A stretch of 64,000 nucleotides of DNA. It comes from Escherichia coli (GTDB lineage Bacteria; Pseudomonadota; Gammaproteobacteria; Enterobacterales; Enterobacteriaceae). The DNA lies in NCBI RefSeq assembly GCF_024502345.1, contig NZ_JALDNN010000001.1; one strand, 5' to 3'. Positions 8,715 through 63,932 of this stretch are shown here, in pieces; within the stretch, counting starts at the first letter, position 1, and each line of letters begins with the position of its first letter. The position numbers were made by a program, and so were the translations under genes. Under the pieces are notes generated by a model. That model was not told where the DNA came from and did not search any database. It was given only the letters and a program-made list of their open reading frames with translations.

Positions 8715-9179
8715 TTATCGCAGAATAAAAGCGGTATACAGCACGTCGGTGACATCCTGTTTCGGTTGCCCGGCAACAAGCGGGGTGGAAAGCGTGGTTT
8801 TAATCTCGGCAATCAGGTTTTTCTTGCCTTCTTCTGTCGCCAGTACGGCAGCATCCTGACGCGAAAACAGTAACAGCAAACGGCTACGGACTTCCGGCAA
8901 ATACTCACTCAGCCGCGAGCGGGTAGCTTCATCTTTCAGGCGCAGGGTTATGCCGATATAAAGTACGCGATCTGCATCGCCCAGATTGACCGTAAAGGTA
9001 TCCAGCGCATAGAAGACCGGGGAGGGCACGACGCGTTGCTGCGCTTTGTCGTCAGCGGCAACCTGATGCGAATGCCAGTAGCTGTAACCTGCGCTGGCAC
9101 AGGCCGCGAGGGTAATGAATACCAGAATCGGGATCCAAAGCGATCGCTTGCTTTTCTTGCTTATCGCGTAATCAGTCAT
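8715..9179 (-). CDS. fliL: Flagellar basal-body-associated protein FliL
   Basis: 154-aa single-pass membrane protein; first gene of the fliL operon. Confidence 0.9.
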
Positions 9180-9283
9180 GTGTTGCGGTCTTCCTGTGTC
9201 GCTACTGCTTATCGGCTAATTATCCTGCGTCTTGAGCGCAACAAAGCGGGGAAAAGACGCGGATTACGGTGCTACCTCTGACG

Positions 9284-10411
9284 TTAGGCGAAAATATCAA
9301 CGCCGCTGTTGCCTGTTACACGTACTTGTAAAGAGACGGGAACCGGAAGCGTATCGTCGTCTTCCCCCGCCAGAGGTTCATGGTTTGCTGTGCGTTGGCT
9401 TTGCTGTTGCTGGGAAGCGGCCTGCTGCTGACCACTAAAGCTTTCGCCACTGATGTTGCTTTGCCCTAACTGAATGCCACTTTCGGCCAGCTGCGTTCGC
9501 AGTACCGGAAGCGCTGCTTCCAGGGCGGCGCGTACGTGTTGATGCGGTGAAACCATCTGGATTTGCGCCTGGTTATCATCCACTTTGAGGGAGATTTGCA
9601 CTTCACCTAAATCCTGCGGGTGCAGACGCAACTCTGCACTTTGTTGCCCCTGGCGGGTGAACAGCGAAATATGCTGGCTTAATGATTGTTGCCATTCGTG
9701 AGAACCCAGCGGTGCACTCAACACAGGCGCGGCGACGGTGGGCAGTGGCTGTGTCTGGTGTGGAGTGATTAGCGGGCTGGCGGCAGCGGTCACCGGTGAA
9801 GGTGTGCTGATGACTTCCGCTTTACCCTGGGCTTCTGCTACCAGCGGTGTTAATGGCTGAGCTGGCGTGCCGGGGGCATCATCAGGCTGTGCTGTTGTGA
9901 GTTGCGCAGAAGTCAGTTTTGTGAAGAGCGTTGGTTTCTCTGCCGGTAACACGGTTGACGGCACATCAGTCACTTTGGGCGTATTGTCAAAACCCGGCAA
10001 CATCGCAAAAAGGGCGCTCAGGCTTGCGGTGACGTCTTCATTCAGATCATCCGCTTTTTCGTCTTTTGCCGTATTGTTGCCAGCCACCGCAGCCAACGTC
10101 ATCGTTTGAGCGGTGGTTAATGGTGTTGATGTGGATTGTTCGTCGTTGATGACAGGCGGTGTTTCATCCACAGGGATCAGTAAATCCGCTTGTTGCGCAT
10201 CGGCAAGAATCTCGCTGACCAGCGGCTCGCCTTTTGTCGTGGGCTTATCTGTTGCCACCAGCAACTGGGGGGCCGCTTTGTCGGTAGTTGTCTCGCCTGC
10301 TAATGCTTCGCTCAACAACGCGAGAAAATCTTGTGCAGCATCGCTGGCTTTGCCGCCAGGCAATGTGGTGGTGTCAACGTCGGCGGTAATTAAGGGCGCT
10401 AAGCGAATCAT
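9284..10411 (-). CDS. fliK: Flagellar hook-length control protein FliK
   Basis: 375-aa Pro/Thr/Gln-rich protein with conserved C-terminal domain. Confidence 0.9.
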
Positions 10412-39117: not shown

Positions 39118-39204
39118 GCCCGGATGGTGGAATCGGTAGACACAAGGGATTTAAAATCCCTCGGCGTTCGCGCTGTGTGGGTTCAAGTCCCACTCCGGGT
39201 ACCA
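39118..39204 (+). tRNA. leuZ: tRNA-Leu (UAA anticodon), class II tRNA with long variable arm; integration site of the downstream island
   Basis: GCCCGGATGGTGGAATCGGTAGACACAAGGGATTTAAAATCCCTCGGCGTTCGCGCTGTGTGGGTTCAAGTCCCACTCCGGGTACCA. Confidence 0.9.
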
Positions 39205-43583: not shown

Positions 43584-43811
43584 ATGTATAAAACTCGCGG
43601 TGAAAGGATCGCAGAAAGGCTGTGCTGGATATTACTTCAACTGTATACCGGTAATACGGTATCGGTTAATGATATATGTCAGCGTTTCGCGGTCAGTCGC
43701 CGAACCGGACAGCGTGATTTGTTGAGAGTTGAAACTGTAACGGAAACTATTTCACCTGGAAGGGTAAGGCTGGCAAATTTGATAAGGGAACGAGTTAGAC
43801 GAAATTTTTAA
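43584..43811 (+). pseudogene. Remnant of a WYL/BrxR-type regulator gene (N-terminal HTH only)
   Basis: 75-aa ORF resembling the N-terminal HTH of the 300-aa regulator at 44773-45675; no WYL domain follows. Confidence 0.4.
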
Positions 43812-43892
43812 TCGAATCCATATCAATTCTATAAAATATGAAACTTAACGGGAGTAAATATACACTCCCGTTATAATGCAACCTTTTTTTAA

Positions 43893-44711
43893 CTACTCAA
43901 ATGATATTAATTTAGGTGCGACAGTGTTTTTATGACATGTTAAATTCGCAAGATCAATAATATCATGAAACAATTTTATGTCGTCGTCAGTGAGCTCTAC
44001 GTCTGGATCAGCTAAATCGGCACAGGTAACATTTAACCAGTGTGTTAATGAATCAATCCTGTTTGAAGTAATATATTCAGTGTGACCAATATCCCACTTC
44101 CAGTTGATCACCCGAGCAGGTCTGAATCTCACCTCCCGAACCCCAATTGGCGTTACTGACTCTACGAGAGGGTATATCGTGTTAAGTACTTTATCATGTT
44201 CACTGTAGATATTTAAATGCCCCATTTTTGAACCGTAAGCCATTTTCATTATGTTCTCTGTATAACTTGTTATTGGGGTGGCTCCGGCCATAGAGATTGT
44301 TAAGAGAATATTATCATTTTTAATATAGGGTAATGTATTGTTTATTAATCGAGTCCCTAAAGAATGACCCATTATGATCACATTACGCTTTTCTTTAACG
44401 TATATCTCGTTTATTACGTGTGCTAATTTTTCTCTGTTATTAACTGCTGCTTTCGTTGCATTATACCAGGCCTGACGCGCTTTAAATGGAATGGAGATTG
44501 ATGACAATAAAGGAGATGTTCTCAGGGGGAAGAGAGTATATAACCCCCACTTGTTCGCTATGTCAGAACTTAATATGGATAGTAGATTTGCCGATTCCCA
44601 TTTATAGTATCTGACATCAAGGCCACACCCTGCTTTAATTCGGTTAAACCATGATATATCATTTTCGGTCAGAAACCCTGATACAACAAGAAGAACCGGG
44701 CATTTTTTCAT
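43893..44711 (-). CDS. Alpha/beta-hydrolase-fold protein with GHSLG nucleophile elbow (esterase/lipase-like), function unknown
   Basis: 272-aa ORF; GxSxG motif GHSLG; candidate Asp/His downstream; immediately downstream of the WYL regulator gene. Confidence 0.6.
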   Translation of the reverse strand: MKKCPVLLVVSGFLTENDISWFNRIKAGCGLDVRYYKWESANLLSILSSDIANKWGLYTLFPLRTSPLLSSISIPFKARQAWYNATKAAVNNREKLAHVINEIYVKEKRNVIIMGHSLGTRLINNTLPYIKNDNILLTISMAGATPITSYTENIMKMAYGSKMGHLNIYSEHDKVLNTIYPLVESVTPIGVREVRFRPARVINWKWDIGHTEYITSNRIDSLTHWLNVTCADLADPDVELTDDDIKLFHDIIDLANLTCHKNTVAPKLISFE

Positions 44712-44772
44712 GGTAACTCCATTTTTTAGCTTACAAAAATAGCACTCAATGAAAATTATATTATCCGTGTCA

Positions 44773-45675
44773 TTACGGGGCGTTACTTGGCTGGGTGTAA
44801 CGTTTCAGTGCGGATTGTATATCTTCAGCAAGTTGTTGACGGATTGAGGCCGGTTGTATTACTTCGACATCCGGTATCCAGTATTTCATTAAAGGCATTA
44901 TCTGATCTGTGTGTGTTACACGTGATATCACCAGTAAATCGCCAGACCGGGAAGTATGAATTATTTCCTGTCCTGGCAATAGATGACGGTGGGTAAACCA
45001 CGGAGCAACATGTGCGGAAACTGAAATAAGAACTTCGATAAGGTCTTCGCTATACCAGATACCATCTGTCTTTTCTATTTTTTCATTAATTTCGGGGATT
45101 ATCCTGAAAGAGATATTACTCATGCAAACGTCTTTGACAGATGAGATAACAAAGCTTTTTAATGTACTGTCATGGGCGGCAGCGAGATACCACAATCCGT
45201 TGTCATTAACCAGCCTGTATGGCTCAACAGCCCGAAACTCTTTATCTTTGTAATTAAAATTTACTTTCTTCTGTGACAGGATGGCATCGGATAATACATT
45301 CAGAATTGACATGAATGATCCGCAGTTTTCGTATGGACGTTGTTTTATCAGAAACGGGTTGTTTTTCGTGTTACCTAACAAAATACTCAGTAGTCTGTCA
45401 TCCCAGCGAGGGAACAGCCCTTCAATACCCAGGATGCGCGTGAAATGACGTAAATCAGCATTGCTGCGTTGACCGAGAACACCGTCAGACAGGCGATAGC
45501 GACCATTTTGTCGAATCAGATTAAGATAGGACAGGCGCTGAGTAAGATCACGACGGATAGTTTTTTCGCAAACGTTAAATTCCTCAGATAACTCCCGGAC
45601 GGCTAGTGACTCACCATTGTTCAGGCGAGTTAATATCAATCCGAGTCGATATCCAAGTTTATCGTGCTTACCCAT
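44773..45675 (-). CDS. HTH + WYL-domain transcriptional regulator (BrxR/CapW-like, defence-island regulator family)
   Basis: 300-aa ORF; N-terminal DeoR-like HTH ([22 protein letters not shown]), central WYL-type segment ([10 protein letters not shown]). Confidence 0.65.
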
Positions 45676-45723
45676 TCGTTTATCCGGTTAATGCCAGCGA
45701 AGAGGATATTTTCAGCAAAGTAA

Positions 45724-45836
45724 CGGACAGGATGAGTCCACTTTTACTGTGACGGAGAAAAAAATTAACTCATTAATTATCAATATATTAAAACATTGCT
45801 GGAATCATCGAATAACATGTGGACTCATCCTGTCCA
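45724..45836. promoter_or_regulatory. Perfect 17-bp inverted repeat pair upstream of the WYL regulator gene (candidate operator)
   Basis: GGACAGGATGAGTCCAC at 45724-45740 and its exact reverse complement at 45820-45836. Confidence 0.45.
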
Positions 45837-46054
45837 TGTGTATTTTTACGTTCAGGGTGATAATTATTATCCTGACCTGTACATGACATGTTTTTGCTGC
45901 ATATTTGACCATGCACTTTTGCCATCAAGTCGGAGAGGCAGGGGGGAACGTAAGATCCGAAGGTTAGAGAGGTTATCAGCAATTACAATGATGATTAATA
46001 TTTTCATAATATCGGAGAACATCATATTAGTTGAAATAACATAAAGGTGGTTCT

Positions 46055-46381
46055 ATGTATTTACATATCAGAAAGTATCAACTCGTAAATGCGAGATGGC
46101 GTGATGTCATTGATCTGACAGATTATGAAGAAACAATCAGGCAGGTTGTCGGTACATTATTTGGAAATGATTTTATTGAGGTCAGCGTTGAAACAAATTG
46201 TTTTACTCTGACAGTAAACAGTACAAGCAGTAAAATACCACACGGCATACTGGTGAATATGGGGAAAAGGCTGGCGGCTAATCTCCAGAGTATCACCTGT
46301 CATGCCATGCGGATCTATCATGTAAATGGCCATCCTGACGCGCGGCAGTTATTTCACTGTTTTGATGCCGATTGCCTGTGA
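46055..46381 (+). CDS. Hypothetical protein
   Basis: 108-aa ORF convergent with the piPolB gene; weak support. Confidence 0.3.
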   Translation: MYLHIRKYQLVNARWRDVIDLTDYEETIRQVVGTLFGNDFIEVSVETNCFTLTVNSTSSKIPHGILVNMGKRLAANLQSITCHAMRIYHVNGHPDARQLFHCFDADCL

Positions 46382-46429: not shown

Positions 46430-49093
46430 TCAGACTGGAAGACAGAATGTCGGATATTTACGGGCTATGATATCCATCAGTGACTTCATTCGCGGTGTTA
46501 CAGAACTAAATTTCATTTGGGGTATTTTTGCTCTTACCGCATTTTTTACATCAGTCACCGTTACTGAATAGCCTTCTGACGTCAGCCATTCAGCAACCTC
46601 TTTACAGGAATAACTTTTTTTATCTTTCAGCATCAGCCCCCATTGGCACTGAGTCAGCGCCCGGAGAAATAGTCTGACTAAAATATCATCACTACGTTTG
46701 CTTCCGACTTTTAGTTTCATATCAGAAAACACCGTCCGGCAATAGAGAAAATCACACCAGTCATCCCAGTCAGCCAGGGTCTTCAGTGTATGCGTTTGCC
46801 GCCAGTCGTCGAAAAGGGAGCGCTGCTGCAGAGCCTCTTCCATATTATCCCATGGGCGGGAAAACATCAGTAAATGCCCTTCATTCATGGCGGGCTGTAC
46901 GGGCTGGCGTTTGAAATCGAATTCCAGATTAAGACGGATATCCTGTTCCCGGGATACCAGATCGCTTTCCGACAGCCACATCTCACGCGTTGATATCAAC
47001 GTACTTCGGGATAAAGTCTGACCGGGTAAACGATTAAGGTAAAGATCTACCATATAGTCGTTATAGTCACTGCGTGGAATATCGGCAGGAGGTTTGACGC
47101 CAGCCCTGGCATGAACAACAGGTTTTCCCTGAATAGCTCTATAGGTTAACTGCCCCCGGGTTTTCATGGCGATAAGCTGGCTGACTTCATGCTTACATGT
47201 CAACATTGATGAACCCGGATCAACAATATCGCACAGCGACTGGAAGCGGGAAGACAGTGGACCGCTCATGTTTATCTTGTTAAGTGGGCAATTTGTCAAA
47301 AAGCCATCGGTTGTGACGCTGACAACCGATGAATCAGAAGGCAAAGCATTCATGAGTTCCCCGGCAACGGCGCGGATAAATCCCGTTACATGCGCAGCAA
47401 AGAATGGCTGAGTAACCGATGATGGTGGGAGGGATCTGTTTAATCCACGGGCAGTATCAAAGGCGGTTTTGGCGCGAAGGCCCTGAGCAAGTTTGCCATA
47501 AAGCGAGTTGCCAATTTCTTTCCAGAATTTCTCCTCCAGAGAACCTTTAATATGGCGATTACGGTTCTCACGGACCTGTTGAACAAAGGGAAGAAACACC
47601 GATGTTGATTCGCTGTTATGTGGGGAGGTGTCACAGATCCAGGGGACGATGATCCCATTATGGATCGTCATCTCTGCCCCGAGCGACAGAGCAAGTTCGA
47701 TTTCAGGTGCCGTTGCCCATGATTCGCCACTTAATGGAAAGAATAACCCATATTGATCGGTCCGAACCGGCAGGCTGGGATAGGGAACTGATTCCGGGAA
47801 CCGAAATGTGACAAGCGCAAATCCCATTACATGCCCACAGTAATCGTCCGGATTTTTACTGAGGCGGATGTTCCCGTAATCGGGTGTGAGGATATCTAAT
47901 AGCCCGGTGGTATACGCTCCAGCCAGATCGTAGTCATACCAGTGATCAGACGGTGTAACCCCCATCATAAAACACTCATTGCGTCCGCCGTGGTAACAGT
48001 TGATCGGGAACGTTTCAAACAACTCTCTTGAAGGAACACTGGCGGGGTTTTTAATCGTCCGGAATGCCTGTTTCTCCGTGAGCCAGAGTTCACGGGTTTT
48101 AATGTGTGTCCCAAGGCAGACTTCAGGAGACATATTGTTTTCTTTAAGTGTTTTGGTGAACCGTGAAACTGCCATCGCCCCGATGGTGGCGGGGACACGA
48201 TCAATCATCAGCTCCCGGGCGCAAAAATTGCGAACCTGTAAAGCATAACGAACCGCAATCTCGGCATCCCGCAGAGCATAGGCTTCAAACCCTGCTCTGT
48301 CGCCCAGAAGATATTCACGCATATTGGTTATGGAATAAGGTGCAGGAATGGTGAGTTTGGGAAGACCCAGTAATTCACCACATTCAGCCAGACCCATACC
48401 CCCGGGAGTGATAAGCAGTGTATCGATGAAAGCTACGTTACTGCAACGCGGAGGGGAAGTTCGTTTGTCAAACATTATCTGTTCAGTCTTTACGCGACGT
48501 TCCTGCTGTTCATCAAAATCGATACCGTAACGATTTTTGAAGCTGCTGACAGTACCGCGTATTCCTTTCAGAAGAATTTTGTAGTCTGACCAGAAATTGG
48601 CAAAGGAGGCGATATCCGCACGAATGAAATGCGCATATATATTAATAATACCGGGCCATTTTGTAATCACACCCGTTTCAAGAAGCGGTGTAATCGTTTG
48701 ACAGAGAAATTCCTTAAAAGACAGCCGGGATTTTTTCTGTGAGTCAGGTGGATAGATAATGTTCGATATACCTGTATTATCGGGTAAGATAACATAACTC
48801 TGATATGACAGAATATCATTCTGTCGTGTTTCAGGGTTGAAAACATATTCGGTATCAAAACCGATATGGAGTGTCAGGTCACTTGAAATAACAGATACTT
48901 TTTTTGATGCAGGTGGTATCACAGGATAATCATCAAGCGTTTTAGGTCTTTTACGATTGAGCGCTGGCTCTGAAGTCACGGACTGATACCCCGAGGCGGC
49001 AGCGAGGATGTCCTGCAAATTATTGCTCATAGTTAACTCCGAAAAAATGCCGGGAGCTGTGTCCCGGCATAAAGAATCAGGATTTAATAACAT
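46430..49093 (-). CDS. Family B DNA polymerase of the primer-independent (piPolB) type, pipolin hallmark gene
   Basis: 887-aa ORF; Exo I FDTE; motif B KEIGNSLYGK; motif C-like VTTDGF; KTRG in place of the canonical KxY motif (IAMKTRGQLTY). Confidence 0.8.
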   Translation of the reverse strand: MLLNPDSLCRDTAPGIFSELTMSNNLQDILAAASGYQSVTSEPALNRKRPKTLDDYPVIPPASKKVSVISSDLTLHIGFDTEYVFNPETRQNDILSYQSYVILPDNTGISNIIYPPDSQKKSRLSFKEFLCQTITPLLETGVITKWPGIINIYAHFIRADIASFANFWSDYKILLKGIRGTVSSFKNRYGIDFDEQQERRVKTEQIMFDKRTSPPRCSNVAFIDTLLITPGGMGLAECGELLGLPKLTIPAPYSITNMREYLLGDRAGFEAYALRDAEIAVRYALQVRNFCARELMIDRVPATIGAMAVSRFTKTLKENNMSPEVCLGTHIKTRELWLTEKQAFRTIKNPASVPSRELFETFPINCYHGGRNECFMMGVTPSDHWYDYDLAGAYTTGLLDILTPDYGNIRLSKNPDDYCGHVMGFALVTFRFPESVPYPSLPVRTDQYGLFFPLSGESWATAPEIELALSLGAEMTIHNGIIVPWICDTSPHNSESTSVFLPFVQQVRENRNRHIKGSLEEKFWKEIGNSLYGKLAQGLRAKTAFDTARGLNRSLPPSSVTQPFFAAHVTGFIRAVAGELMNALPSDSSVVSVTTDGFLTNCPLNKINMSGPLSSRFQSLCDIVDPGSSMLTCKHEVSQLIAMKTRGQLTYRAIQGKPVVHARAGVKPPADIPRSDYNDYMVDLYLNRLPGQTLSRSTLISTREMWLSESDLVSREQDIRLNLEFDFKRQPVQPAMNEGHLLMFSRPWDNMEEALQQRSLFDDWRQTHTLKTLADWDDWCDFLYCRTVFSDMKLKVGSKRSDDILVRLFLRALTQCQWGLMLKDKKSYSCKEVAEWLTSEGYSVTVTDVKNAVRAKIPQMKFSSVTPRMKSLMDIIARKYPTFCLPV

Positions 49094-51329: not shown

Positions 51330-52460
51330 CTACAGTTTCATGATCTTGTTCGCTATTTTTTCGAAGTAAACCTCATTCTTAAGAAGAGTGATATTGTTTG
51401 TTTGAACACCCAGACCACTGGAGGTTGACTGGAAGTTGAGTGAACCACTTATCACTGTGGACTTTCCTGATAAAAATGAAATCAACTCCTTGGAAGATGG
51501 TGCCCACTCAGGGTTTAAGAGTAATGCAATATAGATATATGTCTTACGAAGCAATTGTTCTATATCTTTTTTATGCCCTGTAGTGTTTTGCTTACCTTTA
51601 ATGCAAATAGATTTGATTATGAACTCATCAGGGCTGGTTAAAGGCGTTTTAAACTCACTCAGTGATCCATCGTTATGAATGACTTCATAAGGCAGCATAG
51701 ATAAAATGATCAATGCAATCATTTTAGGATGATAAAGGTAGTTATCACGAATGATTTTTCCTGCCTTCATTGTATTGAGCGTTGTTTGAATAAATACAAA
51801 AAGATATTCAGAGCAAAAGTAACAAAACACAAGCCAGGATAGGTCAATGGATGGAATGTTAATATCCTTAGGTAGTTTGTTTAGCCAGTATTCAGACTTC
51901 AAAAAGGTCCTGATTTCAACAGTATATTCATGCATTTTTGCGCTGAAATCAAGCATTGCTACTTGACCTGATTGTTCCGTAACTGTGTGGTCTATAAATG
52001 TTAGTGTATTGCACATTTTATCCAGCGTGTTTTGAAAACAAGAAAGGAGTTCGGCATTATTATTACCATTAACCGCAGATGAAAGTTCAGTTTTAATAAA
52101 TGCATCCAGTAGCATACAGATTTCTTTCGGAATGACATTTTTACGGGATTGCTGTGAATAGAAATGTACTGCCAGTAAATTAAAGGCAGTGCACTCCTTT
52201 TTTAACCATTGTTCGAGCACTGGGACGTGCTGAAAAAAATTGATATGCTTAGCAGTAGATGCTGATGGAGATAGTACATGAAGAATATCTACAGCAGGCT
52301 TCATTTGCAATATTTGATCGGATTCGGTAGTCGTCATTAGTTCCAGTAATTGCTGTTCAGAAAATAGTTTAGACAGGTGATCAATGTCTTTTTGGTATTG
52401 ATTAAGTTTTGTTAAATTCCCCGGTATACGGGTTACATTGTTTTTCATTTTCTCGAACAT
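51330..52460 (-). CDS. Hypothetical protein (AT-rich gene, no recognisable motifs)
   Basis: 376-aa ORF, Lys/Asn/Ile-rich; long uninterrupted frame in a strongly AT-rich stretch. Confidence 0.5.
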   Translation of the reverse strand: MFEKMKNNVTRIPGNLTKLNQYQKDIDHLSKLFSEQQLLELMTTTESDQILQMKPAVDILHVLSPSASTAKHINFFQHVPVLEQWLKKECTAFNLLAVHFYSQQSRKNVIPKEICMLLDAFIKTELSSAVNGNNNAELLSCFQNTLDKMCNTLTFIDHTVTEQSGQVAMLDFSAKMHEYTVEIRTFLKSEYWLNKLPKDINIPSIDLSWLVFCYFCSEYLFVFIQTTLNTMKAGKIIRDNYLYHPKMIALIILSMLPYEVIHNDGSLSEFKTPLTSPDEFIIKSICIKGKQNTTGHKKDIEQLLRKTYIYIALLLNPEWAPSSKELISFLSGKSTVISGSLNFQSTSSGLGVQTNNITLLKNEVYFEKIANKIMKL

Positions 52461-52966: not shown

Positions 52967-54202
52967 TTAAAAGGAAATAAATAATGCCTTCCGCCGATGA
53001 ATCAGTGTACTGATTTCTCGAAAATCAGCCTCAATACTACCAACATCACCAAAGACTTCACCACTAATCTCTCTTCGATTTTTCATGAAATTGGTGCTTA
53101 ATAAGCTTTCTTTTTTTAGTGTCACTAATTTTGGTTTTATATCGTTATAGAAATGCTTACGGCTTACCCTGATGCTATGAATCGAGTAGTAAACTGTTTT
53201 ATACATCAAAAATATAAGTAACTGGCCGAGAAGATATTCTTTTTCAATGTATTTATATTGAGAGGATTTTTCGCGTTTCGCCAGGTAGAAAACATGAGGT
53301 GCGATGATGGTGGGGATGAAATCCAGTGCTGGAGAGGTTTTGGTTTTTTCTGTTTCTCTTCCGGATTGAAGATGTTGAAGTACAGAGTATACAATGCTTA
53401 AAATTATGGCGTTACTTATATTATTAATTGCAGTTGGGTAAATATGCAGATTGCTTATCAATTCTGAAAGGCAAAGTAAAACACCAGTGATGTTGGGTTT
53501 TCTGCCGGAGATTGTGGTGCTGTTGAAAATGTGACGATTCTTACGACTTATATTGACAAGTTTATGAGTGCAGAACTCTATATGTTCGACGATTTTATCT
53601 TGACTATTTTTAATGTATTTTGAAATGTTAGTGATCCGGCCATTCAACGTTAGTTCATCAAGCAATATATCATTTTTAATATTGCGAATTTCATCGCAAT
53701 GTTCACATTGAGAAACTATCTCATGTAATACATAACTCGACGTATTGCGGGGTGACGCTGATATGTAATCTAAAATAGAAGGCTCGATTTTGATTTTTTG
53801 TTTGTATTTTTTAATGCACTGTTTGATTGTTTTTTGTAGAGTATTTGAGATGTGTTTTTTATATTCTTTTAGAAAATCTTGCTCTAAAAAGAGTGAGGAG
53901 AAGATCAACTGCTGGCGAGATAATTTAATCTCAGGCTTGATCAATTTAATCCGAAAAACTCTTCCCTCCAACTCATAGCTGAACATGGAAGATAAGTCAT
54001 AGTGGGGTGATAAATGTTCGAGTAACGACATTCGTGTATTCATTAGCCGCTTGAATTTATGGTCAGCATACATAAGTGTTTTTTTTATTTGCTCATCATA
54101 AAGTGGGCCGATAGCGCAGTTGGCAATACTCATTCTATCCGGAGACCTCCAGTCAGCAGGGGAATCACATTGACGGTCATCATTACTATCAAAGGGCATC
54201 AA
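52967..54202 (-). CDS. Hypothetical protein (AT-rich gene, no recognisable motifs)
   Basis: 411-aa ORF, similar composition to the preceding gene; divergent from hsdM. Confidence 0.5.
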   Translation of the reverse strand: MMPFDSNDDRQCDSPADWRSPDRMSIANCAIGPLYDEQIKKTLMYADHKFKRLMNTRMSLLEHLSPHYDLSSMFSYELEGRVFRIKLIKPEIKLSRQQLIFSSLFLEQDFLKEYKKHISNTLQKTIKQCIKKYKQKIKIEPSILDYISASPRNTSSYVLHEIVSQCEHCDEIRNIKNDILLDELTLNGRITNISKYIKNSQDKIVEHIEFCTHKLVNISRKNRHIFNSTTISGRKPNITGVLLCLSELISNLHIYPTAINNISNAIILSIVYSVLQHLQSGRETEKTKTSPALDFIPTIIAPHVFYLAKREKSSQYKYIEKEYLLGQLLIFLMYKTVYYSIHSIRVSRKHFYNDIKPKLVTLKKESLLSTNFMKNRREISGEVFGDVGSIEADFREISTLIHRRKALFISF

Positions 54203-54505: not shown

Positions 54506-56029
54506 ATGAACGACAAAATCAGTCAGGACACGATCAACAAAGCCCTGTGGGCCGCGTGTGATACGTTCCGTGGCACCATCAGTGCTGATACCTATAAAGA
54601 CTTTATCCTTACCATGCTATTCCTTAAGTACATTTCGGATGTCTGGCAGGATCACTACGACGAATATAAAGTGCAATATGGTGATGAGCCGGAACTGATT
54701 GAAGCGATGATGGCGAACGAGCGCTTCGTGTTGCCGAAAAGCGCCAGTTTCTATGCGTTGTACGAGCGACGTCATGAGCCGGGCAACGGTGAGCGTATCG
54801 ATCAGGCGCTGCATGCGATTGAAGAAGCCAACGGCACCAAACTGAAAGATGCCGGGAAAAGTGTCTTCCAGGATATTTCGTTTAACACTGACCGTCTGGG
54901 CGAAGAAAAACAGAAGAACACCATCCTGCGTCAGTTGCTGGAAGACTTTGCCGGTGAAGATCTTAACCTGAAGCCAAGCCGTGTCGGTACGCTGGACGTT
55001 ATCGGTAATGCTTACGAATATCTGATCAAAAACTTTGCTGCCAGCGGTGGGCAGAAAGCCGGGGAATTCTATACCCCACCGGAAGTTTCGGATCTCATCG
55101 CTGAACTGCTTGATCCTCAACCCGGTGATACAATCTGCGACCCGGCCTGTGGTTCCGGTTCGTTGCTAATGAAGTGCGGGCGTAAAATTGTCTCAGGACA
55201 TGATAGCCGCAACTATGCGTTGTTCGGTCAGGAAGCGATTGGCTCCACGTGGTCGCTGGCGAAAATGAACATGTTCCTGCACGGCGAAGATAACCACAAA
55301 ATCGAGTGGGGCGATACCATTCGTAACCCGAAGTTGTTGGATAAAAACGGCGACCTGATGCTGTTTGATATCGTGACCGCAAACCCACCGTTCAGCCTGG
55401 ATAAGTGGGGCCATGACGAGGCCGAGAATGATAAGTTTGGGCGTTTCCGTCGCGGTGTACCGCCGAAGACTAAAGGGGATTACGCCTTTATCTCGCATAT
55501 GATCGAAACCCTGAAACCGGGAACGGGTCGTATGGGCGTAGTGGTGCCGCACGGTGTGCTGTTCCGTGGCTCCAGCGAAGGCAAAATTCGTCAGAAGCTG
55601 ATTGATGAAAACCTACTCGATGCGGTGATTGGCCTGCCTGAAAAACTGTTCTACGGTACGGGTATTCCTGCTGCAATTCTGATTTTTAAAAAGCAGAAAG
55701 TGGATGACAAGGTGCTGTTTATCGACGCCAGCCGTGAATTTAAGGCAGGTAAAAACCAGAACCAGCTCAGCGCAGAAAACATCGAGAAAATCGTCAAGAC
55801 CTACCGTGATGGCGATAGCGTCGAGAAATATGCCTACCTTGCCAGCCTGAAGGAGATTCAGGACAACGATTACAACCTCAATATTCCGCGCTATGTCGAT
55901 ACCTTTGAAGAAGAAGAAGATATCGATTTACTTGCCGTTCGTGCTGAGCGGGAGGAATTGAAAGCGGAACTGGCGAAATTGGAAACGCAGATGGCGGGTT
56001 ATCTGGAGGAGCTGGGTTATGGTGCCTAA
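54506..56029 (+). CDS. hsdM: Type I restriction-modification system methyltransferase subunit HsdM
   Basis: 507-aa ORF; SAM-binding motif DPACGSGSLL and catalytic NPPF (TANPPFSLDKW). Confidence 0.9.
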   Translation: MNDKISQDTINKALWAACDTFRGTISADTYKDFILTMLFLKYISDVWQDHYDEYKVQYGDEPELIEAMMANERFVLPKSASFYALYERRHEPGNGERIDQALHAIEEANGTKLKDAGKSVFQDISFNTDRLGEEKQKNTILRQLLEDFAGEDLNLKPSRVGTLDVIGNAYEYLIKNFAASGGQKAGEFYTPPEVSDLIAELLDPQPGDTICDPACGSGSLLMKCGRKIVSGHDSRNYALFGQEAIGSTWSLAKMNMFLHGEDNHKIEWGDTIRNPKLLDKNGDLMLFDIVTANPPFSLDKWGHDEAENDKFGRFRRGVPPKTKGDYAFISHMIETLKPGTGRMGVVVPHGVLFRGSSEGKIRQKLIDENLLDAVIGLPEKLFYGTGIPAAILIFKKQKVDDKVLFIDASREFKAGKNQNQLSAENIEKIVKTYRDGDSVEKYAYLASLKEIQDNDYNLNIPRYVDTFEEEEDIDLLAVRAEREELKAELAKLETQMAGYLEELGYGA

Positions 56030-57266
56030 GGGGTGGAAACGAGTACCGATTAAGGATGTGTGCGAGTCTATAATCGATTGCGTAAATAAAACAGCTCCAG
56101 TTGTTGATTATGAAACTCCCTTTAAGATGATTCGTACCACGAATGTACGTAATGGAAGGGTTAATACTGAAGACGTCAGATATGTGACTGAAGACACTTA
56201 CCTGCAATGGGTTCGACGCGGAAAACCGCAAGTAGGTGATATCATCTTTACACGTGAAGCACCTGTAGGAGAAGCAGGTGTCCTGCAAGATGCTGAAGGT
56301 ATTTTCCTCGGGCAAAGAACGATGATGTATCGAGCTGATACCTGCCTTTCAGATAACTATTTCTTGTTCTACTCGTTATCAAGTCCCTTCTGCCAGAAAC
56401 AAATTGAAGATTTTAGCAATGGCGGTACTGTAGCTCATATGAGAGTTCCAGATTGCGGTGAGATATTGATCAATCTACCGCCTTTCCTCGAACAAAAGAA
56501 AATCGCCCAAATCCTGTCAACCTGGGATAAGGCGATTTCGGTGACGGAAAAGCTTCTCACCAACAGCCAGCAGCAGAAAAAAGCCCTGATGCAGCAATTG
56601 CTTACTGGGAAGAAACGCTTGCTGGATGAGAATGGGACAAGGTTTTCTGAAACTTGGAAATTATATGCCTTATCGAAATTATTTCAGAGAGTTACGACTA
56701 AAAACAATGGAAAAAGCAACAATGTTGTAACCATTTCTGGACAACATGGTTTGATTAAACAGGAAGACTTTTTCAAGAAAACAGTCGCATCAGATACCCT
56801 TGATGGTTATTTCTTATTAAAAAAAGGGCAGTTTGCTTACAATAAAAGTTACTCTAATGGTTATCCGATGGGTGCAATAAAAAGATTAAATCGATATCCA
56901 GAGGGAGTAGTAACAACTCTGTATATATGTTTTGAACTTACTACACCCAAAAAATCATGTGGTGACTATTGGGAGCATTATTTTGAGTCAGGGCTTTTGA
57001 ATAACAGTTTGTCTCAAATTGCTCATGAAGGTGGACGGGCTCATGGCTTGCTAAATGTAAAACCTTCGGACTTCTTTTCATTAAAAGTTGCGGTTCCTGG
57101 CTTTGAAGAGCAACAAAAAATCGCATTAGTTCTGTCCGCTGCCGACACCGAAATCTCCACACTGGAGAAAAAACTCGCCTGCCTGAAAGACGAGAAGAAA
57201 GCCTTGATGCAGCAACTGCTGACCGGGAAACGTCGGGTGAAAGTGGATGAGGCGGTTGCCGTATGA
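56019..57266 (+). CDS. hsdS: Type I restriction-modification system specificity subunit HsdS
   Basis: 415-aa ORF with two target-recognition domains separated by conserved repeats (KKALMQQLLTGKKRLL and KKALMQQLLTGKRRVK); overlaps the hsdM end. Confidence 0.85.
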   Translation: MVPKGWKRVPIKDVCESIIDCVNKTAPVVDYETPFKMIRTTNVRNGRVNTEDVRYVTEDTYLQWVRRGKPQVGDIIFTREAPVGEAGVLQDAEGIFLGQRTMMYRADTCLSDNYFLFYSLSSPFCQKQIEDFSNGGTVAHMRVPDCGEILINLPPFLEQKKIAQILSTWDKAISVTEKLLTNSQQQKKALMQQLLTGKKRLLDENGTRFSETWKLYALSKLFQRVTTKNNGKSNNVVTISGQHGLIKQEDFFKKTVASDTLDGYFLLKKGQFAYNKSYSNGYPMGAIKRLNRYPEGVVTTLYICFELTTPKKSCGDYWEHYFESGLLNNSLSQIAHEGGRAHGLLNVKPSDFFSLKVAVPGFEEQQKIALVLSAADTEISTLEKKLACLKDEKKALMQQLLTGKRRVKVDEAVAV

Positions 57267-57946
57267 AACTGACGAAAAGCGGTCCACTGACTGACCGGGA
57301 AATCGACTGGCTGGAAGAAATATTAATGAAGTATGGAATGGATGATTCTGTACTCTGTTTCTCTGAGCTGGATGGATTGCTGACGGCGATTTTATCAGGT
57401 CCAAATATGGTTTCACCCAATATCTGGCTGAGTGCTATTTGGGGAGGAGGCGATTATCATCCGAAATGGTCATCTGAGAGAGAGATGGAGCGTTTTGTCA
57501 GTCTGTGTTTTCAGCATATGAACGATATCGCTGGTTGCCTTTATGACGCCCCTGAACTGTTTGAGCCGATTTTCAATGAGCGTGAGGTAAAGGGGGAAAA
57601 ATATACCATTGTGGAAGAGTGGTGTTTTGGTTATATGAAAGGAAAGTCACTGGATGACTGGTCTGGTCTTCCCGGTGAGTTACGGCCTTCTCTGGAAGTG
57701 ATCGCTCTTCATGGCGTGGAGAAGAATTTTCCTGTACTTGAGAAAATGACCGGAGAGCAGTTTGAGAAAAGTATTTCCCTTATTCAGCCTGCTGCACTGG
57801 CACTTTATCAGTACTGGTTGTCAGTGAGAATGTCAGAGGCATCATCCCGGCCTGTTCCAGTGAAGGGGGCAGAAAACATGCCCGGGCGAAATGACCCGTG
57901 TCCGTGTGGCAGCGGTAAAAAATTTAAGAAGTGCTGTCTGCATTGA
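57263..57946 (+). CDS. YecA-like (UPF0149) protein with C-terminal SEC-C zinc motif, embedded in the Type I R-M operon
   Basis: 227-aa ORF; C-terminal GRNDPCPCGSGKKFKKCCLH; start overlaps the hsdS stop (ATGA). Confidence 0.8.
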   Translation: MKLTKSGPLTDREIDWLEEILMKYGMDDSVLCFSELDGLLTAILSGPNMVSPNIWLSAIWGGGDYHPKWSSEREMERFVSLCFQHMNDIAGCLYDAPELFEPIFNEREVKGEKYTIVEEWCFGYMKGKSLDDWSGLPGELRPSLEVIALHGVEKNFPVLEKMTGEQFEKSISLIQPAALALYQYWLSVRMSEASSRPVPVKGAENMPGRNDPCPCGSGKKFKKCCLH

Positions 57947-62060: not shown

Positions 62061-63932
62061 TTGGTCAGTCTCGTTAATGCAGGGAGTATAATAATGAGTA
62101 AGTTAGATAATAAAATTGAAGCACGCCATCGTAATTTGTTTGATGTTCTAAATGCGCAAAAATATACCGTTGATTACTTTCAGCGCGAGTATAGCTGGGG
62201 TGAGAAACATATTGAAGAGTTGGTTACAGACTTAACATCTGCGTTTCTCAATGAATACACAGTCGGTGATTCTCGGGAGCAGGGTGAAAACTACAATAAT
62301 TATTACTTAGGACCATTTGTTGTGAGTAGTAAAGATGGAAAGCGGAGTATTATTGATGGTCAGCAACGACTGACTTCATTAACTTTATTTCTAATTTACC
62401 TCCATAATCTTCAGAAAGAACTTAAATATGAAGAGAAAATAGAATCAATGATTTTCTCCGAGCTACGTGGCAGCAAATCATTCAATATAGTAGTTGAAGA
62501 CAGAATTCCTTGCATGGAAGCATTGTTTAATTTTGGTAGCTATAGTTTAGTTGATGGGGATGATGAGTCAACCCATAACATGGTGGAGAGATATCAGAAT
62601 ATCACAGATGCTTTTCCTGATGAGTTAAAAGGTCAGGCTTTTCCTTTTTTTATCGACTGGCTTAAGTATAACGTTATTATGGTTGAGATAGTCGCCTATT
62701 CAGATGAAAACGCATATACCATCTTTGAGACTATGAATGACCGAGGATTGAATCTTACTCCGTCCGAAATGCTTAAAGGTTTTTTACTTTCACGTTTTCA
62801 TCAGGGAGATAAACGCCAAAAGGCAAATGAACTCTGGAAAAAAGCGATGATGGATTTAAAAAGCTATGACAAAGATGAAGACCAACGTTTTTTCCAGTCA
62901 TGGTTGCGTGCTCAATATGCTGATACAATACGCCCGGGTAAAGCTGGTTCAAAAAATGAAGACTTTGAAAAAATAGGTACGCGTTTTCATAGCTGGGTTA
63001 GAGATAATCTTCAGGCGGTGGGATTGGACCCAGATAATGGTGAGACATTCGAACGATTTATACAAAAAAACTTTTTGTTTTATTTGAATGCCTATACACA
63101 AATACTGAATGCTGAGAGAGTATTAACGCACCAACTGGAATATGTATTTTATATCCACCATTGGGGTATTGCACCTACTTTAAGTTTTCCTTTGATGTTG
63201 GCTCCATTAAATGTAGGTGACAGTCCTGAGGCTGTGATAGCCAAAATAAACCTAGTGGCTCGCTATATTGAAACGTTTGTTGTTCGTCGTTCTGTTAATT
63301 TCCGAAAATTCTCTGCCAGTTCTATTCGTTACACAATGTACAGTCTTGTTAAAGAGATTCGTGGTAAAAGTTTTGAAGAATTAAAAGATTTATTATCTAA
63401 GAAGTTATCCGAAATGCCAGATACTTTTGCAGGAATGGAAGAGTTTCGTCTCCATGGTCAAAACTATCGTTTTGTGAAGTTTTTGCTTTCTCGTATAACT
63501 GCGTGGGTTGAGCAACAAGCCGGAATGAGTACAACCTTCATTACATATTATCAGCCAGAACACGGTAAGCCATTTGAAGTCGAGCATATTTGGGCCGATA
63601 AATATGAACGTTACTCTGATGAGTTTGAACAAGAGCACGAATTTAACAATTACAGAAATCGCTTAGGTGATTTGGTTTTATTACCTAGAGGCTCAAACCA
63701 GTCATATGGTGATTTGTGTTACGATCAAAAGCAACCTCATTACATCAAAGAGAATCTCCTGGCTAAATCGTTATGCCCATTGGCATATATGAATAACCCT
63801 AATTTCAATCAGTTGAGAAATGTATTCGGATTGCCTTTCAAACCACATGATTCATTTAAAAAACAAGATGTCGATGAACGACAGTCTTTGTATAAAATAA
63901 TTTGTGAGAATATTTGGGGCCATAATTTATAG
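62061..63932 (+). CDS. GmrSD-family Type IV restriction endonuclease (N-terminal DUF262 ParB-like domain, C-terminal DUF1524 HNH-like nuclease)
   Basis: 623-aa ORF; DUF262 signature IIDGQQRLTSL; C-terminal segment EVEHIWADKYERYSDEFEQEHEFNNYRNRLGDLVLLP. Confidence 0.75.
   Translation: MVSLVNAGSIIMSKLDNKIEARHRNLFDVLNAQKYTVDYFQREYSWGEKHIEELVTDLTSAFLNEYTVGDSREQGENYNNYYLGPFVVSSKDGKRSIIDGQQRLTSLTLFLIYLHNLQKELKYEEKIESMIFSELRGSKSFNIVVEDRIPCMEALFNFGSYSLVDGDDESTHNMVERYQNITDAFPDELKGQAFPFFIDWLKYNVIMVEIVAYSDENAYTIFETMNDRGLNLTPSEMLKGFLLSRFHQGDKRQKANELWKKAMMDLKSYDKDEDQRFFQSWLRAQYADTIRPGKAGSKNEDFEKIGTRFHSWVRDNLQAVGLDPDNGETFERFIQKNFLFYLNAYTQILNAERVLTHQLEYVFYIHHWGIAPTLSFPLMLAPLNVGDSPEAVIAKINLVARYIETFVVRRSVNFRKFSASSIRYTMYSLVKEIRGKSFEELKDLLSKKLSEMPDTFAGMEEFRLHGQNYRFVKFLLSRITAWVEQQAGMSTTFITYYQPEHGKPFEVEHIWADKYERYSDEFEQEHEFNNYRNRLGDLVLLPRGSNQSYGDLCYDQKQPHYIKENLLAKSLCPLAYMNNPNFNQLRNVFGLPFKPHDSFKKQDVDERQSLYKIICENIWGHNL

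Follow-up and report, generated by a model that had tools for sequence, protein, structure and literature searches.

A DriD-like WYL regulator and a lineage-specific DUF726-type hydrolase in a variable slot within the conserved arm of an Escherichia coli pipolin

WYL-domain regulators are already known to head accessory and defence genes on mobile elements, and two described groups come closest to the locus analyzed here, a WYL regulator gene followed by a hydrolase gene in the one pipolin carried by a 64-kb stretch of Escherichia coli chromosome (the window). DriD of Caulobacter crescentus and PafBC of mycobacteria are single-stranded DNA (ssDNA)-sensing WYL activators that are encoded on the chromosome and govern a multi-gene DNA-damage regulon; dimeric DriD binds the box ATACGAC-N7-GTCGTAT, including in its own promoter (PMC10853764). 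The pipolin regulator shares with them the winged helix-turn-helix–WYL–WCX architecture, and with DriD a palindromic box with a GAC-N7-GTC core in its own promoter. BrxR and CapW, which are WYL repressors at bacteriophage exclusion (BREX), cyclic oligonucleotide-based antiphage signaling system (CBASS) and other defence loci, have the same three-domain architecture and, as here, stand first in front of co-oriented and varied downstream genes. The pipolin has been described as well: its left arm, comprising tRNA-Leu, IntSXT, orphan genes, DUF2787, WYL and piPolB, forms a conserved core of which WYL, DUF2787, IntSXT and piPolB are the named markers (Mateo-Caceres & Redrejo-Rodriguez 2024; PMC11551731). 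The locus is located in this arm and its WYL gene is one of the markers, whereas the hydrolase is lineage-specific cargo inside the "core"; the main text of that paper mentions neither the hydrolase, nor DUF726, nor a variable slot behind the WYL gene. New here are the DriD-type operator, that variable slot, and a DUF726 hydrolase as its cargo.

The two genes lie on the minus strand. The regulator gene (44773..45675; 300 amino acids [aa]) is supported by its open reading frame (ORF), Pfam domains, PADLOC WYL models and profile matches to PafBC and DriD structures, and the hydrolase gene downstream of it (43893..44711; 272 aa, DUF726 family) by its ORF, Pfam matches to DUF726, LCAT and DUF900, a catalytic triad and a structure model. 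An earlier note on this DNA had described a regulator followed by a single co-oriented serine hydrolase with a GHSLG nucleophile motif; ORFs and Pfam agree with that description, and the motif occupies residues 115–119. The 61-nucleotide (nt) intergenic spacer (44712..44772, minus strand) carries a GGAG ribosome-binding site ahead of the hydrolase ATG, and a sequence scan found neither a terminator-like nor a minus-strand promoter-like site within it, implying that the two genes are co-transcribed. A terminator-like hairpin, TAACGGGAGT-N8-ACTCCCGTTA (43846..43873), is situated between the hydrolase gene and a convergent gene for a 75-aa helix-turn-helix (HTH) protein and, judging from its sequence, marks the end of the operon. 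We regard the regulator and the hydrolase as real genes that form an apparent operon. A 2.6-kb stretch containing the pair was 95–99.7% identical in 317 of 5426 complete E. coli genomes, on the chromosome every time, and RefSeq names the two products in these genomes "helix-turn-helix transcriptional regulator/YafY" and "DUF726 domain-containing protein".

We propose, with a probability of about 40%, that this locus is a signal-switched single-effector cargo operon in the conserved pipolin arm, the effector being of the abortive-infection type and induced by a switch that senses ssDNA or DNA damage. The gene structures, the catalytic triad, the fold, the conserved operator and the variability of the slot, all of them strongly supported by the sequences, carry this proposal and are described in the following paragraphs.

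Pfam assigned HTH_DeoR to residues 10–61 of the regulator (5.6e-8), WYL to residues 124–183 (2.5e-10) and WCX to residues 212–290 (1.7e-9), and the protein matched PADLOC WYL models at 7.5e-22. A phmmer search of the PDB with the single regulator sequence found nothing, whereas a profile of 16 regulator sequences compared with all PDB chains retrieved PafBC (7.6e-11), DriD chains (3.2e-9 to 7.3e-9) and other WYL proteins. The similarity to PafBC and DriD is remote and limited to the WYL–WCX half. Among the matches of this profile at E ≤ 10 there was no BrxR or CapW chain and the operator is of DriD design, so that the term "BrxR-like", which the earlier note had applied to the regulator, does not describe it well. 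The regulator also differs from DriD and PafBC in that it rides a mobile element and heads a swappable cargo gene; its binding of ssDNA is a prediction. With BrxR and CapW it has in common that relatives of it, namely a 35%-identical orthologue and those of the sister pipolins, precede LeoA/LeoBC-like GTPase genes; it differs from them in that the hydrolase downstream is no recognised defence gene, and repressor behaviour would be putative. WYL orthologues with 32–98% identity retain synteny with IntSXT, p123, p177 and DUF2787, and WYL belongs to the core gene set of pipolins in gammaproteobacteria, in agreement with PMC11551731.

Upstream of the WYL gene, two boxes form a perfect 17-nt inverted pair, each arm of which is itself palindromic (GGAC-N7-GTCC). 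The proximal box, GGACAGGATGAGTCCAC (45725..45741; core GAC-N7-GTC), covers the -35/spacer region, about 50–66 nt ahead of the WYL start codon, and the inverted distal box (45819..45835) lies 94 bp away from it. Read as GGAC-AGGATGA-GTCC (GGACAGGATGAGTCC), the 17-nt box has just these two copies in 64 kb, and its half-site and spacing equal those of the DriD box (PMC10853764). The pipolin part of the window contains six generic GAC-N7-GTC sites, of which only these two are intergenic and have the conserved inner sequence. Since both stand at the WYL promoter, the predicted regulon within the element is this operon alone, in contrast to the multi-gene regulon of DriD and PafBC; no conserved-type box that would suggest a multi-gene regulon was present elsewhere in the 64-kb window. 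Control of piPolB or of the integrases by the regulator was considered and rejected, as the rest of the pipolin holds no box of the conserved type.

The operator is conserved well beyond E. coli, its position being kept in orthologues with as little as about 32% identity. GAC-AGGWTGW-GTC occurs at the same two positions relative to the start codon, the proximal box from about -63 and the distal one at -148 to -176, in orthologue promoters of Citrobacter, Intestinirhabdus, Buttiauxella, Cedecea, Limnobaculum, Mangrovibacter, Yersinia, Aeromonas, Gallibacterium and two unassigned contigs; the distal box is conserved in the enterobacterial orthologues, and a CGAC-N7-GTCG form is found in those of Aeromonas, Gallibacterium and one unassigned contig (L009). 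A strict GAC-N7-GTC box was present in 15 of 17 distinct gammaproteobacterial orthologue promoters, and the density of boxes was 1.49 per kb across all 57 promoters, compared with 0.166 per kb in whole loci. The motif was absent from the promoters of the Campylobacterota homologues, which are about 30% identical. A -10-like hexamer, GAAAAT (45708..45713, minus strand), was assigned from the sequence 11 nt downstream of the 17-nt proximal arm and 12 nt from its core, and aligned orthologue promoters conserve GAWAAT at this fixed distance, 11–12 nt past the proximal box. No -35 hexamer was found at proper spacing from GAAAAT, suggesting, together with the position of GAWAAT, that the proximal box occupies the -35/spacer region.

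This box geometry would fit occlusion of the promoter and activation by a regulator that replaces the -35 element alike. The missing -35 hexamer recalls activator-dependent promoters and favours activation of the DriD/PafBC type, but it is suggestive only. In the mechanism that we propose, the regulator would bind the boxes as a dimer, and its WYL domain would sense ssDNA or a similar nucleic-acid signal arising from phage replication, DNA damage or the piPolB-driven replication of the pipolin itself. Binding of the ligand would turn the operon on, either by activation, which the absent -35 favours, or possibly by relief of repression. The ligand and the sign of regulation are thus parts of the model that we infer, as are the substrate of the enzyme and an effect on phages. 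Once induced, the hydrolase would cleave an ester bond, most likely in a membrane phospholipid by analogy with the archaeal enzyme cinquedea described below, and as a result the compromised cell would be arrested or die, or an invader would be damaged.

An autoregulatory operon with the regulator first and the operator over the -35/spacer region could also serve addiction, in which a toxic hydrolase would be held in check by a WYL repressor, and loss or disturbance of the pipolin, or loss of the repressor, would free the toxin and select for retention of the element. The implied single transcript argues against such stabilisation: a repressor made from the same transcript cannot outlive the toxin or be inherited separately from it, unlike in classical systems. 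Even with further points in its favour, which are given with the data on cinquedea and on deletions, we judge addiction to be improbable.

The hydrolase matched DUF726 (PF05277) at 1.5e-6 over residues 80–196, LCAT at 2.6e-5, and DUF900; PF05277 is also precomputed on close homologues, and the weakness of the match indicates that the hydrolase is a divergent member of the family. No NCBIfam model matched it, those of curated metabolic families included; a search of PADLOC-DB v2.0 likewise gave 0 families at E ≤ 1. These results agree with the statement of the earlier note that the hydrolase-only arrangement fits no defence system that it could name. The named system "Hydrolase-3TM" was rejected as a counterpart since it uses a HAD-like rather than an α/β hydrolase. 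Members of the family are scarce: 5 relatives came out of a word-index search covering 5.8 billion proteins, and a full HMMER scan, run on 1.84 billion representatives, gave 162 at E ≤ 1e-3 and only 19 at E ≤ 1e-10. This scarcity bears out the view that it is no housekeeping esterase.

In an alignment of 40 sequences, which are 20–30% identical to the query except for two close E. coli alleles, Ser117, Asp173 and His210 were invariant, as were G12, W38, G119, L176 and G190. An AlphaFold run with a 5-sequence alignment was unusable (predicted local distance difference test [pLDDT] 45.7) and was superseded by one with a 99-sequence alignment, which yielded an α/β-hydrolase fold with a pLDDT of 88 and a predicted template modeling score (pTM) of 0.87. 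In this model, the S117/D173/H210 triad is positioned after strands 111–116, 165–169 and 201–205, the canonical places of this fold, and the model is poor only at an insertion of residues ~41–75 and at the C-terminal tail. Foldseek searches of AFDB50 gave DUF726 proteins of bacteria, archaea and ciliates as the best matches (E 1e-9 to 1e-16). The neighbours in the PDB were a LipA-type lipase, APT2, a carboxylesterase, hornet PLA1 and pancreatic-lipase-related proteins; judging from the model, the solved-structure neighbours are generic lipases, esterases and thioesterases. No signal peptide or transmembrane (TM) segment was predicted, and membrane anchoring via the poorly modelled insertion was ruled out by a maximum 19-residue hydropathy of 1.1. 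The protein is thus taken to be soluble and cytoplasmic, with a canonical triad; an esterase or phospholipase activity is predicted by analogy with the lipase-like neighbours and with cinquedea (below).

The weak Pfam match of 1.5e-6 could also be that of a generic esterase or of a gene being lost. The ratio of nonsynonymous to synonymous substitution rates (dN/dS) among close hydrolase alleles is raised to a relaxed 0.43–0.63, and deletions, described below, are frequent, both of which would suit an ordinary or decaying gene. Set against this, dN/dS relative to a 67%-identical allele is 0.056, indicating that the gene has been maintained by long-term purifying selection; the triad is invariant in the 40 homologues; the hydrolase is intact in 182 complete E. 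coli genomes and in two Citrobacter species; and the promoter architecture is conserved. An ordinary or decaying gene is therefore, in our estimate, highly improbable.

As to what the enzyme might do, the sole characterised prokaryotic DUF726/DUF900 enzyme that we found in the literature is cinquedea of Haloferax larsenii, a secreted archaeal bactericidal phospholipase A of the DUF726/DUF900 type (bioRxiv 10.64898/2026.06.10.730825). It shares with the E. coli hydrolase the Pfam neighbourhood, an x-H-S-L-G nucleophile motif and a Ser-Asp-His triad; it differs in being secreted, archaeal, larger and a single-gene unit, whereas the E. coli protein is predicted to be cytoplasmic. It demonstrates that bacterial membranes can fall victim to enzymes of this type, and we take it as a lead on activity. 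A related enzyme that is a bactericidal phospholipase would also suit the toxin of an addiction system. The CapV-type phospholipases of CBASS could be functional analogues only, in that cleavage of lipid inside the infected cell would abort infection. CapV folds as a patatin and carries a Ser-Asp dyad, and a cyclic nucleotide activates the finished protein. The hydrolase differs from it in its canonical α/β fold and in a control that would be transcriptional, and the locus contains no cyclase or other sensor gene.

The gene behind the WYL gene is not constant. In a species-level genome scan that yielded 65 WYL loci, a full E. coli-type pipolin with the hydrolase (93–94% identity) was found only in Citrobacter koseri and C. 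amalonaticus. Four sister pipolins, from Intestinirhabdus alba, two Buttiauxella species and an Enterobacter metagenome-assembled genome, have the same gene order, with identities of 70–71% for piPolB, 89–94% for IntSXT, 82–88% for DUF2787 and 70–72% for WYL. The hydrolase is absent from the pipolins of Intestinirhabdus, the two Buttiauxella species, Enterobacter and Aeromonas. Between the WYL and 75-aa HTH genes, the sister pipolins instead encode a 146-aa protein without a Pfam match, a 299-aa TRAFAC GTPase with an Era/Der-like G domain and weak PADLOC matches to LeoBC (3e-12) and LeoA (1.4e-8), and two small secreted proteins. A 144–149-aa relative of the 146-aa protein occupies the slot alone in Cedecea and Mangrovibacter, and a relative together with the GTPase does so in Limnobaculum. 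The Aeromonas pipolin slot holds 246-aa and 241-aa proteins, and that of Yersinia is empty. In L009 the slot is filled by a 326-aa multi-TM protein with a signal peptide; the idea that this might be a cryptic hydrolase was rejected (hhalign probability 0.1%, no Pfam match). The slot of another locus (L010) contains 102-aa and 66-aa genes and three dynamin-like GTPase genes, the first of which matches PADLOC LeoA at 2e-12.

Two side observations concern these slots. The 146-aa protein and the GTPase (L020, 10887–12207; also L022, L024, L025 and L023) make up an unannotated candidate cargo pair. At L010 (10001–17737; and at L011), the 35%-identical WYL orthologue, with the same operator type, heads an apparent Eleos-like operon.

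The earlier note had presented the regulator and hydrolase as a candidate two-gene module and had named conserved co-occurrence as a test of it. Neither idea stood: the pairing is confined to pipolins of the E. coli/Citrobacter type, WYL has already been published as part of the pipolin core (PMC11551731), and the slot is occupied otherwise in sister pipolins and related islands. As judged from the sequences, the evolutionary unit is a fixed DriD-like regulator with a swappable slot and not a self-contained mobile two-gene system; such turnover is more typical of conflict genes. One could go further and suppose that the pipolin "core" holds an undescribed mini-hotspot, in which a DriD-type ssDNA-sensing switch with a fixed operator is combined with exchanged effectors, and that the E. 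coli effector is a new abortive-infection DUF726 lipase or phospholipase under transcriptional induction. We hold this fuller version to be rather unlikely; if true, it would represent the first bacterial immune function for DUF726, a domain that also occurs in eukaryotes and archaea.

Within E. coli the locus varies by deletion and recombination. Among the complete genomes, piPolB was present in 295, the hydrolase in 302 (182 intact) and WYL in 191 (180 intact). In about 120 of about 300 E. coli pipolins the hydrolase gene is incomplete, and several of these share a 395-nt remnant of its 3' end; in the single genome inspected (E. coli L6-21, L083 6001–7147; ~44288–46000 of the window) an IS1 insertion sequence stands where WYL and the 5' half of the hydrolase have been deleted. 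These partial-hydrolase genomes fit a deleted pipolin clade mentioned in PMC11551731. In the variants seen, the common deletion never takes the regulator alone but always the catalytic half of the hydrolase with it, which would be in keeping with addiction.

A second pipolin lineage (L016/L017) carries the stretch from the C-terminal half of WYL through the hydrolase to the 75-aa HTH gene at 66–73% identity. The flanking core genes are mostly 93–98% identical, and piPolB is 87% identical. A diverged block between far more conserved flanks suggests recombination, and co-divergence of the C-terminal half of WYL and the hydrolase to 66–67% identity suggests that their association is old within this clade. 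In this lineage (9032–9930), a frameshift at about codon 145 splits WYL, while the 67%-identical hydrolase is intact. An apparently frameshifted regulator beside an intact enzyme would speak against addiction and toxicity, but the shift coincides with a run of seven A residues (A7) and could stem from faulty sequencing or assembly, and we accord it little weight.

We also surveyed homologues of the hydrolase with about 25–33% identity, and the settings were nearly all mobile elements. They comprise an integrase/AlpA island (L002); a group of small genes with a 254-aa partner (L004/L005); a Vibrio plasmid, where the gene follows parAB and has a 454-aa partner (L012); a lambdoid prophage, where it lies between the Q antiterminator gene and those for a methylase, RexA, RexB, holin and lysozyme (L013–L015); a P4-like integrase/DUF3987 island (L084); an integrase-remnant hotspot with an adjoining type I restriction–modification (RM) system (L087); and a region with IS66, T5orf172 and AbiEi (L088). 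RexAB, type I RM or AbiEi were nearby in 3 of about 8 independent contexts, a sample too small for statistics. Searches with the hydrolase family gave 1 weak match in 72,556 plasmids and 0 in 50,697 phage genomes, and IMG/VR scans with two homologues found 1 close relative of P0013 and none of P0016.

As an observation in its own right, P0013 (L013, 10001–10780; also L014, L015 and L089), which is about 32% identical to the hydrolase, is encoded in a late-transcribed accessory region directly after Q, a position that implies late expression upon induction. Its place upstream of the holin–lysozyme genes of a lambdoid prophage lends some support to a helper of lysis or release, that is, a hydrolase that would attack envelope lipid upon DNA damage or element replication and free pipolin or prophage DNA, in the way that esterases aid lysis by some phages. 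The pipolin and prophage settings would both tie expression to signals of the DNA-damage type. Nevertheless, the hydrolase lacks both a signal peptide and a membrane segment, its surroundings in the pipolin contain no gene for a holin or endolysin, its homologues are missing from the phage genomes and nearly so from the IMG/VR scans, and pipolins have no known particle or release route. A lysis helper is, in our view, very improbable.

Several of the results weigh against the proposed abortive-infection operon. A family hidden Markov model found no hydrolase in the other 63 WYL loci (the 4 sister pipolins and 59 more), and conversely a WYL profile had no match at E ≤ 1 in eight hydrolase-homologue loci (L002–L005, L012–L015). 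The pair is gone from about 40% of E. coli pipolins through a deletion that is associated with IS1 in the one example seen. No PADLOC family matched the hydrolase, the sample of about 8 defence contexts is small, and the near-absence of the family from plasmids and phages is unlike the distribution of widely exchanged defence genes. Finally, according to PMC11551731 it is the distal cargo arm that holds the defence genes, and WYL is part of the maintenance core.

The last point, the lack of PADLOC matches and the dispensability of the pair in about 40% of pipolins would agree with a non-defence passenger, the main rival of our proposal; addiction, a lysis helper and an ordinary or decaying esterase are lesser ones. 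The WYL protein would then act in pipolin or host stress physiology and the hydrolase would be an accessory "moron" with a part in, for example, lipid or ester turnover, envelope remodelling under stress from DNA damage, or virulence. DriD and PafBC, the closest solved relatives of the regulator, govern DNA-damage responses and not immunity, and the relaxed dN/dS among close hydrolase alleles points the same way. However, the slot is swapped for unrelated genes in sister elements, as is more typical of conflict genes; the homologues are few, have a patchy distribution and occur on mobile elements only, several of them adjoining RexAB, RM or Abi genes; and no curated metabolic family of NCBIfam was matched. 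We consider the passenger unlikely, if still to be taken seriously.

Returning to the signal-switched effector operon, the turnover of the slot, a patchy family found only on mobile elements, RexAB, RM and Abi neighbours, Eleos-like GTPases and dynamins in the related slots, and the bactericidal DUF726/DUF900 precedent are features expected of conflict genes. A defence role of the hydrolase is plausible on these sequence grounds. If the proposal is correct, about 3% of complete E. coli genomes (182 of 5426, counting intact hydrolase genes) hold an unrecognised, transcriptionally armed lipase-type effector, and the pipolin "core" is not purely a maintenance unit. A cargo slot anchored by a sensor would then be a simple hunting place for new effectors, and the same slot of sister elements already contains several unannotated candidates. 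DUF726, a domain of unknown function that is also found in eukaryotes and archaea, would in addition gain a testable bacterial role. Should the favoured reading be wrong, the locus would still illustrate clearly how a mobile element has domesticated a DriD-like regulator.

The neighbourhood of the pair is that of a pipolin. From the integration site, tRNA-Leu(taa) (39118–39204), the order is a 246-aa gene, an IntSXT-type integrase gene, three small genes, DUF2787, the 75-aa HTH gene, the hydrolase and WYL; beyond WYL follow a 108-aa gene, piPolB (46430–49093; 887 aa), a 212-aa gene, an excisionase-like HTH gene and a second integrase gene. The arm beyond the second integrase carries as cargo a type I RM system (M, S and R), PDC-S12 and HEC-06. 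This gene order and cargo fit the earlier placement of the pair inside a defence-rich mobile element between the integrase and piPolB.

The 75-aa protein (43584..43811, plus strand), whose gene is convergent with that of the hydrolase, is a stand-alone DeoR-type HTH protein and a paralogue of the N-terminal domain of the regulator, with 34% identity to WYL residues 3–63. It corresponds to PHROG 13105, and its gene is kept at the right border of the slot (43–79% identity) in Cedecea, Buttiauxella, Intestinirhabdus and other islands. The protein might read the same GAC-N7-GTC boxes and may have a role in this system. On the other side of the WYL gene, the 108-aa orphan gene (46055–46381, plus strand) is divergent from the WYL promoter region and has no family match; it occurs only in pipolins of the E. 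coli/Citrobacter type (84–100% identity) and is absent from the sister pipolins.

Some minor observations were made in the cargo arm. Two ORFs between the second integrase gene and the type I RM operon, of 376 aa (51330–52460, minus strand) and 411 aa (52967–54202, minus strand), had no PADLOC match and are labelled "hypothetical" by RefSeq in a near-identical strain. A generic GAC-N7-GTC palindrome, GACAAAATCAGTC (54512–54524), falls in codons 3–7 of the type I RM methylase gene; it lacks the inner sequence that the WYL boxes have in common and probably arose by chance. The candidate defence gene PDC-S12 (57263–57946, plus strand; 3.9e-99) is embedded in the type I RM operon, with hsdS on one side and hsdR on the other, and the gene for a DUF262 protein matching HEC-06 (62061–63932, plus strand) comes after an M48 peptidase gene. 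Both are of cargo types that have been reported as exchanged among enterobacterial pipolins.

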